DNA of 32,000 nucleotides from an uncultured Acidobacteriota bacterium (lineage in GTDB: Bacteria; Acidobacteriota; Terriglobia; Terriglobales; Acidobacteriaceae), in the NCBI GenBank assembly GCA_963764145.1, contig CAVXRC010000005.1:1660413-1692412 (forward strand), read 5' to 3'. How positions within the stretch are numbered: the first letter of the stretch is position 1; the number at the start of each line of letters is the position of its first letter. The notes below the pieces were generated by a model, which saw nothing but the letters and a program-made list of their open reading frames with translations, searched no databases and was not told the DNA's origin. This document shows positions 10,002 through 26,967 of the stretch, one piece after another. Made by a program: the position numbers and the translations under genes.

Positions 10002-11189
10002 GTGCCCAATCTGAAGGCCGTCTTGCTCTGGTACTGCCGCACTCCGCGCGGCTGGCGCCGGTTCCCCGTTTTGCTTGGTCGGAACAATAGAATTCGCCAC
10101 ACGTTTGTGACTGATCAGGGGAAGGAAATATCCTACCCGGAAGGTCGCTATCAGATTCTCGTCTACGAGGGCAGTCGTCCTGTCTACAAGAACGCGGGTG
10201 ATAACGCGGCGGACGCCCTGGCGGCTCGCGATAGGGAAACTCATTTGTTGGCGGCTAAGCTTTCAGCCGACAATGCTGGCGCCAAGATCGTCGAAGAAGA
10301 AAAGAGAACATATCTACGCCGAGCTGCCGGGCTCTACGTGCAAGACGCCGAGAATCGGAACGCCAAAGAAGCGGCAGAGCAGGCCGAGCAGGTTACTAAC
10401 GAGTTCTTGGACGTCTGCCGGAAGACGTTCGTTGACGAGGTCACCCGCGAGGACGTTTTCCGATTCCACAAGGCGTTGCGTGAGCGTGATTGCTCAGATC
10501 GGACGGTCGCCAACAAGCATGCTCGACTAAAAAGCTTCCTTCGATTCGCCGGCGTCGATCTCGCCATCGTTCCTCCAAAGCCAAAGTATGAAGAGGCGTT
10601 GCCGACGATCTACACAACGGAAGAGATACGGGGAATCCTCCAGGCAGCCGATCCCTACATGCGGATCGTGATCGAGATGGGTCTGAAGCTGGGGCTTCGC
10701 GAACAGGAATTGATGTATGCGGAGTGGACGGACTTGGACTGGGAAGAATCAGCGTTCAGAGTTCAAGGAAAGAAGTTTTGGGATTTTCGCGTGAAGGATT
10801 CTGAGCAGCGAGAGATTCCATGCGCATCGGACCTGCTGAAGGCGTTGAAGGCATGGAAGAAGAAGCATCCGAACTCCCGCCTGATCGTCGGGACCACCAG
10901 CGACAGCCCGAATACTCATCTGTTGCGTTCCCTCAAGCGATTGGCCAAACGCGCAAATCTGAACTGCGGGAAATGTGACGGATGCAACTCGAAGCTGAAT
11001 GAATGCCAAGGTTGGACCCTGCATAAGTTGCGGCGAACGTACTGCACAACCCTATTGCGCAACGGAATCGATCTGAAGACGGTCCAACACTACATGGGTC
11101 ATGCTGACTTGGCTTCTACGATGCGCTACCTGCGTCCGGCGGTCGGAAAGGAATCCCAACAGCGCATCAACGCCATTCAATGGATCTAA
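10002..11189 (+). CDS. int: Tyrosine recombinase / phage-type integrase
   Basis: GTG start after GGAGGGGA. The catalytic pattern is GLREQEL (Arg), HKLRRTYCT (H-x-x-R), MGHADLASTMRYL (His and Tyr nucleophile). An N-terminal SAM-like core-binding region is present (EDVFRFHKAL...NKHARLKSFLRFA). Confidence 0.9.
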   Translation: MPNLKAVLLWYCRTPRGWRRFPVLLGRNNRIRHTFVTDQGKEISYPEGRYQILVYEGSRPVYKNAGDNAADALAARDRETHLLAAKLSADNAGAKIVEEEKRTYLRRAAGLYVQDAENRNAKEAAEQAEQVTNEFLDVCRKTFVDEVTREDVFRFHKALRERDCSDRTVANKHARLKSFLRFAGVDLAIVPPKPKYEEALPTIYTTEEIRGILQAADPYMRIVIEMGLKLGLREQELMYAEWTDLDWEESAFRVQGKKFWDFRVKDSEQREIPCASDLLKALKAWKKKHPNSRLIVGTTSDSPNTHLLRSLKRLAKRANLNCGKCDGCNSKLNECQGWTLHKLRRTYCTTLLRNGIDLKTVQHYMGHADLASTMRYLRPAVGKESQQRINAIQWI

Positions 11190-11567
11190 AGGACTGGCAA
11201 CGGAATCACGCCGCGGGCGGCTTGAGCAGTGGGCGGACGCGTCGACGAATTCATCAAGTGAATTGCCGTCCGGGAAGATGGTTTTGACACTGCTGCCGTG
11301 CGCGTTGTGCGTAAAGAGGACGGGCAAAATCTGCTCGATATTGCCACGAAAAATCCACCTACGGACCTTACGTTGTTGCACTTGGTCTGGCAGAAGGCGC
11401 ACTTGCTGGCGATTTACCTGACGTTACCGGCGGCGCTGTCTCTTACTGCGACCGCGATGTATGCTCTGCGCCTGCCTGTTCCGTCGGGAAGACGCCCTGC
11501 TATCTGACCGGCACGCGCCTGTTTTTCAACCTCACTGCGGTCTCTTCGTAGTTGATATCCTTCAAAG

Positions 11568-12653
11568 ATGAATACTGTCTTCTATTCCTGGCAGAGCGAC
11601 AGGCCTGGGGCGGTTTGTCGCAATTTCATCGAGCGTGCTCTCCAGTCGGCCATCGACAGGCTGCGAGCCGACGTGGAGATTGAGCCGTCCCTGCGGAATG
11701 ATCTCGAACTCGATAAAGACACGAAAAACGTACCGGGCTCTCCCGCCATTTTCGACACGATTCTGTTGAAGATTGAGGCAGCGAGAGTTGCGGTTTCCGA
11801 TCTTACGTTCGTGGGCCGACGCGAAGACGGTAGACCGATCCCAAACCCGAACGTTTTGATCGAATACGGTTATGCGCTAAAGAAACCCGGCGCTACGAGA
11901 ATCCTTGCCGTGATGAACGAAGCGTATGGCGACGCGTCGAATCAAACCCTGCCTTTTAATCTAGCGCATGTAAGATTTCCTATTCGATATTCGCTGGCTG
12001 AGACCGCATCCGAGGACCAGAAGAAGGAGGCGCGAAAAGCGCTCACGGATGCATTCGAGTCGGCCTTAAGGACAATCTTCAGTAGCAAGGAATATCAAGC
12101 GGAAGAGGCAAGGCGGGTTCCCTCGGCGCTCGATGTTGCTGCCATTCATAAAAGAGAGCAGGAGTATTCATACCGGCTATCTGCTCTCGGCTATGGAGAC
12201 GGCCTAGAGGATGTCAACCAAAACGTAAAAACCTTGTTCGACCTCATCTGCGCCAAATGCAATGAAGTCGAAGCAAAACACAATTTGGATATCGAATCCG
12301 GCTTTCAAATAATTCCTCGGGAGAGAACGCAGGGTTGTGTCTTAAAGACACCGCATCTTGGAATCGTTCTGAATTGGGAGCAGCCCTTCATAAATTCGCT
12401 TGATCGCGCGAATCTCAACGTCGTTGAGTTGAGCGGGCGTCTCTATCTGCCTGGCCAGTTCTCGGGGGGAGCGTATTTTCCGCCGGAGGAACTTGACCGA
12501 AAAATCTATCAACCAACTCTCTCGGACGCGCTCGAGATCGGATGGGTGAAGCATGGAAAAACGATTCGGGAATCCCCTTTCATTTCGAACGAAAAATTTG
12601 CTGAAGGATGCGTCTCGCAGCTTTTGAATATGCCCCGAAAGGGCAATCGGTGA
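11568..12653 (+). CDS. TIR-like / nucleoside 2-deoxyribosyltransferase-like N-terminal domain protein with an unknown ~200-aa C-terminal domain
   Basis: The N-terminus is VFYSWQSDRPGAVCRNFIERAL...DKDTKNVPGSPAIFDTILLKIEAARVAVSDLTFV...PNPNVLIEYGYALKKPGATRILAVMNEAYG...LPFNL. This is the F(Y/S)SWQSD ... PNPNV.(I/F)E.GYA pattern I associate with TIR-like/NDT-like flavodoxin-fold domains. I do not recognise the C-terminal half. Confidence 0.55.
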   Translation: MNTVFYSWQSDRPGAVCRNFIERALQSAIDRLRADVEIEPSLRNDLELDKDTKNVPGSPAIFDTILLKIEAARVAVSDLTFVGRREDGRPIPNPNVLIEYGYALKKPGATRILAVMNEAYGDASNQTLPFNLAHVRFPIRYSLAETASEDQKKEARKALTDAFESALRTIFSSKEYQAEEARRVPSALDVAAIHKREQEYSYRLSALGYGDGLEDVNQNVKTLFDLICAKCNEVEAKHNLDIESGFQIIPRERTQGCVLKTPHLGIVLNWEQPFINSLDRANLNVVELSGRLYLPGQFSGGAYFPPEELDRKIYQPTLSDALEIGWVKHGKTIRESPFISNEKFAEGCVSQLLNMPRKGNR

Positions 12654-12922: not shown

Positions 12923-14473
12923 ATGTACTTTAAGGTGGCAACGACCTCAAGGCCCGACCTCGGGGGCCGGCTCCCAAGTGTCGTCCTTGTAGAGGACCAA
13001 TGGGACGACTGGTTCCAGTTCAGTACCATGTACACGGTTTACGTATTTGACTCCGGAGGCATTAGGCATCACATTGGAAGCGTAAAAATTGGTCAGTTTG
13101 GCATGGCTTCAGATCAGCGGCGCCCAGCGTTGGAAACTGATTTTGAAGCGCTAGACGATCGCTTCTTTTCCTTGGGCCAGGATGATTCCTATTACTCTCA
13201 GCTAAATGAACTCGTTCCGGATCTCAAAGACGAAATCCTAAACGCCCTAAGAGACCTTCCATACGGTGACTCCCGTCTATTTGAAATCGCACTTAAGGAA
13301 CGTGTGACTACCGTTTCCCTGCTTCGAAGTGTGGCGAGGGGAAGCGTGAGAGATCAGTTTCGCCGAATAGCACTAGGTGGAGCCAGGCTCTCTCAGTATC
13401 ATTTTTCGTATACTGCAGCTGCTATAGGACGACCAAGAAAAGCCGGGGCCTCATTTTCATTCGACGTACAGCCTGAATCGCAGCCGCCAACTAATATCCA
13501 CGTGATCATCGGGCGAAACGGTGTCGGAAAAACCTATCTTCTGAATGCAATGTCGAGAGCCTTGGTCCGCCTGCCGGACGATGAAATCGACAACGGTCGG
13601 TTCGACTTTCCTCACGAAACGTCGGGAACTGGGCTCTTTGCCAATTTTGTATCAGTGACATTCAGCGCATTCGATCCATTCGAACCGATTTCGGCGAGTC
13701 AGAGCCGAAAGGCTGGCGTGGAATATTCCTATATCGGTCTCAAGCGAATTCCTAAGCCGGGCGAAGAAAGGCCGTTGGCACCAAAATCCCCACAAATGCT
13801 TTCCCGCGAATTCACCGAGAGTGCGAAGATCTGCAGACAGGGAGCTCGGGCGGGTCGGTGGCTCAGAGCGCTCAAAATGCTGGAATCTGATCCCATATTC
13901 AAAGATGCCCAAGTCGCCTCCTTAGCTCCGTCGGATGAGGAGGGGGAACCGGGAACAGGTTCATCTACCAACGACATTTTTTCCCGTCTCAGCTCGGGAC
14001 ACAAGATTGTTCTGTTAACCATCACCCGCTTAGTCGAGACAGTCGCCGAGCGAACACTGGTCTTGCTTGACGAGCCGGAAGCTCACCTACATCCACCTCT
14101 TTTATCGGCGTTCATCCGAGCTCTTTCTGACCTCTTAATCAACCGTAATGGGGTCGCTATCGTCGCCACCCACTCGCCGGTCATCCTCCAAGAGGTTCCC
14201 CGAAGCTGCGTCTGGAAACTTCGACGAAGCGGCTTGATTTCTGTGGCAGAAAGGCCGGAAATTGAGACTTTCGGAGAGAACGTCGGGATCCTCACGAGGG
14301 AGGTATTCGGGCTCGAAGTAACGGACTCAGGTTTTCATAGGCTGCTCGCTGAGAGCGTCTCTGGAACGCGAACCTATGAACAGGTACTGACACGATTCAA
14401 CGGGGAACTTGGGGGAGAAGCAAGAGCCATTGTGATGGGACTACTTGCGGCGCGAGACGAGGAAGAAGCATAA
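12923..14473 (+). CDS. ABC/OLD-type (AAA_15/AAA_21-like) ATPase, PtuA-like, with an extra ~190-aa N-terminal domain
   Basis: Walker A GRNGVGKT (nt 13511-13534). Walker B / D-loop LVLLDEPEAHLHP (about nt 14057-14095). H-loop ATHSP. The first ~190 aa (SVVLVEDQWDDWFQFSTMYTVYVFDSGGIRHHIGSVKIGQFG...FFSLGQDDSYY) precede the P-loop and are not recognised. Confidence 0.75.
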   Translation: MYFKVATTSRPDLGGRLPSVVLVEDQWDDWFQFSTMYTVYVFDSGGIRHHIGSVKIGQFGMASDQRRPALETDFEALDDRFFSLGQDDSYYSQLNELVPDLKDEILNALRDLPYGDSRLFEIALKERVTTVSLLRSVARGSVRDQFRRIALGGARLSQYHFSYTAAAIGRPRKAGASFSFDVQPESQPPTNIHVIIGRNGVGKTYLLNAMSRALVRLPDDEIDNGRFDFPHETSGTGLFANFVSVTFSAFDPFEPISASQSRKAGVEYSYIGLKRIPKPGEERPLAPKSPQMLSREFTESAKICRQGARAGRWLRALKMLESDPIFKDAQVASLAPSDEEGEPGTGSSTNDIFSRLSSGHKIVLLTITRLVETVAERTLVLLDEPEAHLHPPLLSAFIRALSDLLINRNGVAIVATHSPVILQEVPRSCVWKLRRSGLISVAERPEIETFGENVGILTREVFGLEVTDSGFHRLLAESVSGTRTYEQVLTRFNGELGGEARAIVMGLLAARDEEEA

Positions 14474-15318
14474 TGTGGCCCCTTAATTCGCCAACTCGCC
14501 TCGTTGAATCTGTGCTTGCCACTTGCGTCAATAACATTGCGAATGCCGCAGCCAAGGCAACATATGAAAGCATGGCCCCGTTGTTGCTAGCAGCCGAAGA
14601 CCAGTTCAGAGCGGCCGCCCAGAACAACACACTACATCAGCTTCCAACGACCACAATGGTCGGGGCTCTGACAGCGAAGCAAATGGCCTGGCTCTACAGC
14701 AAGAAAATGGCAGATCCTAAAGCCCCAGGCAGAGCGATATATGACGAGATCAGAATGGCAGCCCCAAACGGGAGATGTCCGCTTTGCGGAAGAGGAGTCG
14801 TCTACACTCTGGACCATCATCTGCCTAAAGCCCACTATCCAGACCTTGCAATCACACCGATAAATCTCGTCCCCGCTTGTCAAGATTGCAACAAGAACAA
14901 AACCAGCATTTTGCCGACCACGGCCGGTGATGAAACTCTACATCCCTATTTCGACGACGTTGAACGAGATATTTGGCTCCACGCTCGCGTGATAGAGGTC
15001 GCGCCGGCAGCAGTCCTCTATTCGGTAGTTCCGCCGGCGACGTGGTCTCCGACTTTAGAAACGCGGGTGAAAAACCATTTCCGAATTTATCACCTGCGTC
15101 AACTCTATGCGTCGTTGGCGGGAGAGGAGATTGTTAACATTCGTGCTTTGCTAGCTGGCCCGCAGGCAAAGTCGGGGGCTCAGGGCATTCGAGAGTACTT
15201 AACATCTGTTTCAGAAAGCCATCGAACAACAAGACGAAACACTTGGCAGGCAGCCGCTTACTCCGCCATGGCGTCGAGTGACTGGTATTGCGAAGGAGGC
15301 TTTGCTCTCAAGGGGTAA
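14473..15318 (+). CDS. HNH endonuclease (HNH_5/TIGR02646-like), PtuB-like
   Basis: The start overlaps the ATPase stop (TAATG). HNH core: CPLCGRGVVYTLDHHLPKAHYPDLAITPINLVPACQDCNKNK. Confidence 0.75.
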   Translation: MWPLNSPTRLVESVLATCVNNIANAAAKATYESMAPLLLAAEDQFRAAAQNNTLHQLPTTTMVGALTAKQMAWLYSKKMADPKAPGRAIYDEIRMAAPNGRCPLCGRGVVYTLDHHLPKAHYPDLAITPINLVPACQDCNKNKTSILPTTAGDETLHPYFDDVERDIWLHARVIEVAPAAVLYSVVPPATWSPTLETRVKNHFRIYHLRQLYASLAGEEIVNIRALLAGPQAKSGAQGIREYLTSVSESHRTTRRNTWQAAAYSAMASSDWYCEGGFALKG

Positions 15319-15537: not shown

Positions 15538-15999
15538 CTACTGAATAGCCTTGGATTCGAGCCATGCCGCTGTCGCGTGCGGATCGAAGCGAATCGCCCC
15601 GCCGATGCGCAGTGACGGCATCCTGCCCTTCTTCGCGAGCTTGTAGATGTGTTTGCGACTGAGGGAGAGAACCTCTGCCAACTCTTCCGCCGTCCAGGCT
15701 GTACGCCTCTGGCGCACCAGAGAGGCGAGCGATTCAGATTCTGGATTCAATTGTGCACGGCCTTGCCCCCGAAGATCACGGGGCCCCGCCATCGGCGCCC
15801 CCATCTTCCCCCGTCGACGCATTGGCACTGTGGCGGAGCGCCTCGGTTTGCGACTTTCAATACCATCCTCGAACCGTGATCGGGATGGTTGAGAAGGAAT
15901 CTCATGACCTGTCGTTTGGACTTCCGAGGCAGGCAGAGTTCGCCTGGGGACCTCCTGGGCCAGATCTCGTTCGAGATTTATGCCGTTCTCGATAGTCAT
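15538..15999 (-). CDS. Excisionase-family (HTH_17/MerR-like) DNA-binding protein
   Basis: The C-terminus is WTAEELAEVLSLSRKHIYKLAKKGRMPSLRIGGAIRFDPHATAAWL. The N-terminal ~90 aa are low-complexity, so the true start may be internal. Confidence 0.6.
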   Translation of the reverse strand: MTIENGINLERDLAQEVPRRTLPASEVQTTGHEIPSQPSRSRFEDGIESRKPRRSATVPMRRRGKMGAPMAGPRDLRGQGRAQLNPESESLASLVRQRRTAWTAEELAEVLSLSRKHIYKLAKKGRMPSLRIGGAIRFDPHATAAWLESKAIQ

Positions 16000-26205: not shown

Positions 26206-26967
26206 CTAACCCTTGAGAATTTCCGCGGTGGTCTTTGCGATTATCTCGATGATGCTTTCCCGTACAGCCTCGCCCGCTTTGGCGAGATTGATTTGAATTA
26301 GTTTTCGTTTCGCAGGTGCGAGGTCAGCTTTGGGGTCCGACATGACGTATTGCAGGTCATCCCAGAGCTCCTCACGCTCCTCATACGACAATTGGTCATC
26401 GTGGTCGAGTAGGCGGCGGGCAGTTTGCAGACGGTCCTCCATCCATGGGTAGGGCTTTCCGCACCGATGACAGAACAAGGGCAGAACATAGCCTCTCGTG
26501 TCTTGAAATTGCTGGGAACCTCGTATTGGCTCAGTGCACCCCGGACACTCGTGAATGCATGAGGCGCCGCACTTGCTGCAATGCGCGTCCGACTCGAAAG
26601 GCATCCCATCACAGTGTTGGATGTGGCCCTTTCGGCATATTTGGGCGCTGCAGTGGATTCCGTCTGGATGCGTACCGTCTGCCCGGCTCTTATCGCGAGC
26701 CTCGTTCTCCAGCGCCTCCTTAACTAACCGAAGAGCCCAAGCCTTGTATTCGTCCTGTCGCTCTTCCTCAGCAAAATAGCCGCCTTGCCGCCTCACTGAA
26801 AAGTGCGGGACCCACTCGACCGCTTTCCCCGTCGCTGTCGGGGGAGCGCAGACGCGGAACTGTCTCTCATTGATGTGAACCGTAGCAACTTCCTGCAAGA
26901 GCGTTGAGATATTGGAGCCGCGTAGGACGGTTTGAATGAGCACGACTCTCGTACTCGGACTGGCCAT
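26206..26967 (-). CDS. Cys-rich zinc-ribbon protein (DUF2321-like core) with unknown N- and C-terminal domains
   Basis: Intact 253-aa ORF. Cysteine clusters: HCSAQICRKGH...HCSKCGASCIHECPGCTEPIRG...FCHRCGKPYPW. The pattern C..GH / C.KCG...C..C...IRG / C..CGKPYPW matches my memory of DUF2321. Confidence 0.5.
   Translation of the reverse strand: MASPSTRVVLIQTVLRGSNISTLLQEVATVHINERQFRVCAPPTATGKAVEWVPHFSVRRQGGYFAEEERQDEYKAWALRLVKEALENEARDKSRADGTHPDGIHCSAQICRKGHIQHCDGMPFESDAHCSKCGASCIHECPGCTEPIRGSQQFQDTRGYVLPLFCHRCGKPYPWMEDRLQTARRLLDHDDQLSYEEREELWDDLQYVMSDPKADLAPAKRKLIQINLAKAGEAVRESIIEIIAKTTAEILKG

Follow-up and report, generated by a model that had tools for sequence, protein, structure and literature searches.

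The immune systems of bacteria, plants and animals repeatedly use TIR-type NADases as a weapon, and defense families of the TIR-like kind are still being discovered, as DUF4062 was in 2026. Among the described systems closest to the gene reported here are the effectors of Pfam family PF10137 (CAP12/Pycsar effector TIR), such as TIR-SAVED Cap12, TIR-STING (SfSTING, structure 7un8) and PycTIR, which combine a TIR head, a helical stalk and a second domain, and which carry an R/N-x-N-V-x-x-E-x-G motif with the catalytic glutamate in their alpha/beta core. In SfSTING, the NAD+ pocket comprises F6, S10, R78, N80 and E84, the last being the catalytic residue and part of helix alphaC, and D110 of the neighboring subunit completes the pocket, the active site being formed on oligomerization (PMC9402430). 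The DUF4062 NADases (Swarozyc, Evangelion and NIR) are encoded by single genes on plasmids or islands and have a divergent TIR-like head with a conserved glutamate, accessory C-terminal domains and stalks; one of them, Swarozyc, is autoinhibited until bound to the phage portal (bioRxiv 10.64898/2026.05.01.722283, 10.64898/2026.06.25.731849). Here we analyzed a 32,000-nucleotide stretch of DNA from an uncultured Acidobacteriota bacterium (contig CAVXRC010000005.1; hereafter the window), and within it a single gene, the target, whose product joins a TIR-like head to a C-terminal domain of a new kind. Our preferred reading, to which we assign a probability of roughly 0.55, is that the target protein would be a self-contained two-domain sensor-effector carried on mobile DNA, cleaving NAD+, or another substrate with an N-glycosidic bond, upon activation in defense against phage. 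A TIR head with a regulatory tail in a single-gene system is of a known kind; here the tail is new and the head belongs to an uncatalogued subfamily.

The target open reading frame (ORF) lies exactly where an earlier note on this DNA had placed it, and the strings quoted there are all present: FYSWQSD at residues 5-11, GSP at residues 57-59, PNPNVLIEYGYA at residues 92-103, and the C-terminal strings. It is a real and intact gene under purifying selection, because 599 database proteins match it (with about 65 clusters matching over the full length at 40-91% identity), the ratio of nonsynonymous to synonymous substitution rates (dN/dS) is 0.06-0.29 in both halves of the protein, its AlphaFold2 (AF2) model reaches a mean predicted local distance difference test score (pLDDT) of 92.9 with a predicted template modeling score of 0.73, and it is present as one copy in its own genome.

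A Pfam search with the target protein returned only PF10137 (16.8 bits, E = 0.007, residues 81-120). PF10137 is matched by 24 of the 27 full-length relatives, with a best E value of 1.6e-5, and sister proteins match CBASS (cyclic-oligonucleotide-based antiphage signaling system) TIR effector models weakly; in the target's own genome, no PF10137 match was found at the 1e-12 limit used. We then aligned the 27 full-length relatives with 70 diverse pieces of the N-terminal domain, and compared the resulting 97-sequence alignment by hhalign with 25 true PF10137 domains drawn from Acidobacteriota genomes. The two aligned with a probability of 96.1% (E = 2.8e-9) over 81 columns, covering residues 56-143, such that the family's PNPNVLIEYG fell on the PF10137 consensus R-x-N-V-x-F-E-x-G and D78 on the PF10137 DD motif. 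Ten residues are invariant in the 97 aligned sequences (W8, Q9, D49, D51, D78, N93, N95, E99, G101 and N117), including E99, the E-x-G glutamate singled out in the earlier note. In the AF2 model E99 sits in a predicted helix (94-105) and F5 in the first strand, and the N93-x-N95-x-x-x-E99 spacing is that of R78/N80/E84 in SfSTING.

Structural comparison pointed in the same direction. With the 27 full-length relatives as the only input, AF2 left the N-terminal domain at a pLDDT of about 40 with no Foldseek match, and with the 97-sequence alignment the domain folded into a beta-alpha-beta-alpha core that leads into a long helix. Foldseek against PDB placed TIR-STING at the top (7un8, 2.2e-5; 9lmq, 1.9e-3), with the plant TIR 4c6t at 1.3e-2, and against viral models (BFVD) the top match was a Terrestrivirus protein annotated as CAP12/Pycsar TIR (2.4e-8). 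Because of the hhalign probability, these structural matches and the alignment of E99 with the family glutamate, we regard the head as homologous to the CAP12/Pycsar TIRs: it is a divergent TIR whose nearest lineage is PF10137 and which lies outside Pfam's family boundary. Taken alone, this fold assignment is one we hold with high confidence. The fold class proposed in the earlier note, TIR-like or nucleoside deoxyribosyltransferase-like, was borne out by the hhalign and Foldseek results, while the extent given there (about 135 residues) needed revision to a core of about 145 residues plus a helix reaching to about residue 178. Sequence searches of PDB with the target protein and three profiles gave noise only (gephyrin, KIF1A and GGT).

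The target thus shares with the PF10137 effectors a homologous alpha/beta core, the glutamate motif and the order of TIR head, helical stalk and second domain, but differs from them in falling below the Pfam threshold and in its distinct N-terminal FYSWQSD strand. Its likeness to the DUF4062 NADases lies in the divergent TIR-like head with a conserved glutamate, the stalk and accessory C-terminal domain, and the single-gene, mobile setting; unlike them, it belongs to a different TIR-like family and carries a different C-terminal domain. No PF13271/DUF4062 match was found for the target at E <= 1 or for the 27 relatives at E <= 0.1.

The same structural searches also returned nucleoside deoxyribosyltransferases (NDTs) and DNPH1, namely Leishmania NDT (6qai, 2.9e-4), human DNPH1 (8qhq, 2e-3) and a cyanobacterial NDT (8pqt, 3.5e-3), which are only slightly weaker than TIR-STING, together with a phage NDT in BFVD (1.6e-2). 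These enzymes share with the head the flavodoxin-like fold class and a glutamate at the start of the equivalent helix, and D78 at a strand end with E99 at a helix start presumably resembles the NDT active-site layout. The head might on this basis be an N-glycosidase of the NDT/DNPH1 kind, acting on nucleotides or nucleosides; it could, for example, hydrolyze (modified) deoxynucleotides and impair phage DNA synthesis through starvation or damage, still as a stand-alone effector-sensor. We consider this unlikely, as the sole relationship at sequence level is with the PF10137 TIR family, no PF05014 match was found at E <= 1, no sequence-profile relationship to NDT or DNPH1 was detected, and the top structural matches in both PDB and BFVD are TIRs. 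Unlike the target, NDT and DNPH1 are small enzymes of metabolism that consist of one domain and have no sensor domain.

The C-terminal domain was modeled with a pLDDT of 80-98 in both independent AF2 runs, that with 27 sequences and that with 97. The earlier note had found nothing recognizable in this half of the protein, and the same outcome was reached here with each method: no Pfam family was found on the domain in 11 members, its profile had no match among PDB sequences, and Foldseek gave no significant match, the best being p32/gC1qR at E = 0.06-0.1. A p32/gC1qR- or CapZ-like fold was considered and rejected (E = 0.06-0.3, probability <= 0.4), only the helix-sheet-helix layout being common to them. 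A STING-like fold was considered as well, as the alignments that Foldseek made with TIR-STING extended beyond the TIR (231-306 columns, root-mean-square deviation 12-14). It was rejected, since neither STING nor SAVED structures appeared among the Foldseek matches when the C-terminal domain was the sole well-folded part of the model, and Pfam found no STING domain.

This domain evolves faster than the head, with a mean identity of 40% vs. 62%, and is far more narrowly distributed. Its profile was found in 1 of 400 other genomes of the phylum, in none of 33 from the same family and in none of 4 from the same genus, and among species genomes the full-length architecture occurs only in Acidobacteriaceae (Terracidiphilus, Silvibacterium, Granulicella and uncultured relatives). 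Word-based searches with the C-terminal region alone returned only close relatives (8 clusters with the target as query, 2 with the protein L094 described below) and have little bearing on how widely the domain is spread. Two full-length homologs from Acidobacteriaceae metagenome-assembled genomes (MAGs), at L014:8001-9075 and L047:8001-9077, contain 2 and 3 frameshifts respectively and are either pseudogenes or assembly errors.

The single more distant occurrence of the C-terminal module is in L094 (758-1771; genome G245, same phylum), a 337-residue protein whose C-terminal half aligns end to end with that of the target at 24% identity (profile E = 7e-12). Its N-terminal half is of the TIR_2 type (PF13676, E = 0.0036, 109 of 122 positions), below the Pfam threshold, and this architecture is tiny, with one further cluster found and 2 clusters in total. 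The module thus follows heads of two distinct TIR lineages, target-type and TIR_2-type, and may work specifically with TIR heads, a finding that is suggestive rather than firm. The C-terminal domain is of interest as a confidently predicted fold without known relatives which, if it senses a trigger or oligomerizes, would represent a new way to switch on a TIR enzyme.

In contrast with this narrow module, the head is abundant. An exhaustive search of 1.84 billion representatives with residues 1-180 retrieved 4,472 clusters (50% identity) at E <= 1e-3, with 494 at E <= 1e-30. Clustering the sequence that follows the head in 187 proteins revealed at least 15 unrelated C-terminal modules, with many singletons; the largest class, of about 415 residues, has 98 members and the target's class 70, and a common origin of these two modules was rejected (hhalign probability 0.3%). 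That a single conserved head is joined to so many interchangeable tails points to different triggers for the different proteins, and swappable modules of this kind are typical of the modularity of immune proteins. One sister protein, L046:7992-9428 from a Lichenihabitans MAG, joins the same head to a tail (residues 167-466) that matches the C-terminal module of the PADLOC candidate PDC-S65 (E = 3.4e-35), which indicates that the head is exchanged among candidate single-gene defense proteins. The first approximately 190 positions of the PDC-S65 profile are unmatched in L046, so PDC-S65 proteins seem to join a different head to the same tail; the target's own C-terminal domain differs from it and has no PDC-S65 match.

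The named species genomes with a copy of the head come from Acidobacteriota, Pseudomonadota, Planctomycetota, Verrucomicrobiota, Myxococcota, candidate phyla radiation bacteria and others. Its distribution is sporadic and linked to mobile elements: within the phylum, 10 of 400 other genomes contained it, always as one copy and each time in a different genus, and 68 sequenced plasmids carry it, of which 56 are conjugative. Among these 68 are E. coli pETEC_35 and a number of plasmids from Providencia, Proteus and Morganella, on which the gene is annotated only as hypothetical. On pETEC_35 of E. coli E24377A (L095:4656-5483) the protein has 275 residues with the TIR-like part at its C-terminus, and its gene lies near RelE/ParE and repA; the pETEC_35 and Providencia pPROV050-1 (L096:4974-5981) relatives are 35-38% identical to the head. 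A 335-residue form lies close to the mobH relaxase gene and traD in 20 Providencia and several Proteus and Morganella plasmids. With such relatives on conjugative plasmids of E. coli and Providencia, the family is open to tests in ordinary laboratory strains.

A literature search found no publication on this TIR-like family, and the target gives access to a large family of TIR-like proteins missed by Pfam, NCBIfam and PADLOC. We tentatively put forward a broader proposal, one that falls somewhat short of even odds, namely that the FYSWQSD-type head defines a large TIR-like superfamily absent from the libraries searched and forms a toolkit of single-gene immune sensors, with one NADase head on more than 15 unrelated sensor modules. 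Under this proposal the target's C-terminal domain would be a new fold dedicated to TIR control, because it is paired with two different TIR lineages.

Rather than host immunity, the gene could benefit the mobile element itself, either as an anti-defense enzyme, degrading nucleotide immune signals or NAD-derived messengers at conjugative entry, or as an addiction or competition factor; the many conjugative plasmids are in line with this, as are the relaxase and coupling-protein genes that adjoin the head gene in L091 and Providencia pPROV050-1, and the position of the target as the first gene past an integrase. Anti-defense genes of such a sort are usually also present in phages, yet a search of 50,697 phage records found no copy of the head. 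A number of copies are isolated genes on chromosomes, and swappable C-terminal modules, one of them in common with a candidate defense protein, fit sensors better than signal degraders, making a service to the mobile element improbable in our judgment.

The features of the locus are collected in Table 1.

Table 1. Coordinates of the target gene, its parts and its neighbors in the window
Feature	Position	Strand	Remarks
Tyrosine integrase of integrative conjugative element	10002-11189	+	PF00589 6e-25
Leader traveling with target gene, probable own promoter/5' untranslated region	11469-11567	+	99 nt; L007 DNA match
Target ORF	11568-12653	+	ATG start, 361 amino acids, complete: TIR-like head and new C-terminal domain
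N-terminal TIR-like domain, residues 1-178	11568-12101	+	alpha/beta core to about residue 145, long helix 149-172
Codon of E99, predicted catalytic glutamate	11862-11864	+	motif N93-P-N95-V-L-I-E99-Y-G101
C-terminal domain, residues 184-361	12117-12650	+	helices 187-206 and 210-238; six antiparallel strands 243-328; helix 341-359
ATPase gene, PtuA-like (PDC-M01A, Septu-related)	12923-14473	+	PDC-M01A 3.4e-201, PtuA 3.3e-187
HNH gene, PtuB-like (PDC-M01B)	14473-15318	+	PDC-M01B 1.1e-101
Excisionase-like HTH_17 gene	15538-15999	-	after PtuA/PtuB-like pair

The target gene is cargo of an integrative conjugative element (ICE), because an integrase gene lies upstream of it and the excisionase-like gene and type IV secretion genes (VirB8, VirB6/TrbL and TrbI/VirB10) lie downstream. 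GC content drops from about 0.59 on the chromosome to 0.51-0.55 over the cargo block. As the earlier note had described, the target is the first gene past the integrase and lies upstream of the ATPase/HNH pair; the measured distances are 378 nt from the integrase end and 269 nt to the pair, which is itself a candidate defense pair. No consensus sigma-70 promoter and no clear Shine-Dalgarno sequence were found in the 99-nt leader, and searches for promoters, terminators and RNA structure in this leader and in the 269-nt spacer did not rise above background.

This arrangement had led to the suggestion that the target might be a third component of the PtuA/PtuB-like (PDC-M01/Septu-related) module, with which it shares the strand, the short distance and the low-GC block between the integrase and excisionase-like genes. 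The comparison with other loci contradicts this suggestion, which we now find hardly credible. When the integrase, PtuA, PtuB and excisionase-like protein of the window were used as tblastn queries, none of 91 other homolog loci gave a match, and the overlap of ptuA and ptuB by 1 nt stands against their 269-nt separation from the target. Furthermore, a 97% identical copy in a Terracidiphilus MAG (L007) matches the window at DNA level from 11469 to 12653 only, that is, over the 99-nt leader and the ORF, with similarity ending at the stop codon; its flanks are unrelated to the window, the neighbors there being a sugar isomerase and a laccase-type oxidase. Since this match covers only leader and ORF, the two together act like a self-contained cassette, and we consider the stand-alone status of the gene very probable.

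Independence from neighbors was also evident across the 12 homolog neighborhoods that we annotated with Pfam, in which no gene recurs beside the homologs. In about half of the annotated loci, mobile-element or defense genes lie within 8 kb, such as integrases, a PRTRC/ThiF/E2 element, D5 primase islands, a TrwC relaxase with coupling protein, and BrxA/BrxB. The earlier note had taken a conserved housekeeping setting as the outcome that would speak against an immune role; some copies do lie amid ordinary chromosomal genes, with no context conserved among them. The context (no conserved partner, swappable C-terminal modules, sporadic and mobile-borne occurrence) lends support to its suggestion of a putative single-gene effector-sensor.

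Given that the closest family is the CAP12/Pycsar TIR, and that one homolog is labeled 'CD-NTase-associated protein' in UniRef, the target might instead be a signal-producing TIR (ThsB-like) or a cyclic-nucleotide effector (CBASS/Pycsar Cap12-like), with a partner encoded at a distant locus. The label in UniRef was transferred automatically, however, and neither the protein nor the 12 annotated neighborhoods contain a cyclase, CD-NTase, SAVED, STING or cyclic nucleotide monophosphate (cNMP)-binding domain. Unlike CBASS and Pycsar effectors, the target gene stands alone, with an integrase and PtuA/PtuB as neighbors, and its second domain matches none of the SAVED, STING or cNMP-binding sensors. 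We therefore regard a distant partner as very improbable.

Under our preferred reading, the self-contained sensor-effector, the head would cleave an N-glycosidic bond via E99, most probably that of NAD+, and by analogy with other TIR effectors would be inactive until the protein oligomerizes. The C-terminal domain and the interdomain helical stalk would hold the head off until an infection cue, either a phage protein or another molecule, is sensed by the C-terminal domain, whereupon active TIR sites would be assembled, NAD+ depleted and the infection aborted, as by a suicide switch. Activation through oligomerization is proposed by analogy with TIR-STING, and autoinhibition until a cue is bound by analogy with Swarozyc. 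The analysis establishes the gene, its fold, its homology to PF10137 TIRs, the conserved catalytic motif, the independence from neighboring genes and the sporadic, mobile-linked distribution, and from there we infer the substrate, the mode of activation and the anti-phage function.

Several observations weigh against this reading. At 16.8 bits, the target misses the PF10137 gathering threshold of 24.7 bits, and PADLOC and NCBIfam were silent on the target protein, as was PHROGs, with no useful match in any of the three. The first approximately 55 residues, comprising the FYSWQSD strand and helix A, were left unaligned with PF10137 by hhalign, and the predicted equivalence of E99 with SfSTING E84 is drawn from motif spacing and profile alignment rather than from residue-level superposition. 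NDT and DNPH1 structures match the head almost as well as TIRs do, which bears on the substrate. In L088, L089, L090 and L007, the homolog is found amid ordinary chromosomal genes with no defense gene within 7 kb. A PADLOC scan of 128 neighbor ORFs from 13 loci matched BREX, dGTPase, a DpdF-like Toprim-RecQ fusion, MADS components and PDC-M04A, and these matches lend weak support to a defense linkage, as there was no background set and some may be housekeeping genes. Finally, the role of the C-terminal domain as a sensor is one that we purely infer.

Two of the homolog neighborhoods contained further genes of note. In L008 (1568-5554), two genes upstream of the homolog, we observed a 1,329-residue Toprim-topoisomerase-DEAD/RecQ fusion (PADLOC DpdF, E = 0, 1,652 bits; PsyrT, 7e-110), which is either a defense gene or a housekeeping helicase-topoisomerase. 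On the metagenomic contig L090 (6419-6991), a 191-residue ORF without a Pfam match ends 7 nt before the homolog start; it is the sole tightly adjacent upstream gene and does not occur in the other loci. Deeper in the ICE of the window, a DUF2321 protein (PF10083, 7e-29) is encoded at 26206-26967 on the minus strand. The target's own genome comprises 6.38 Mb in 7 contigs, and the four sampled genomes of the same genus are much smaller, at 3.4-4.5 Mb.

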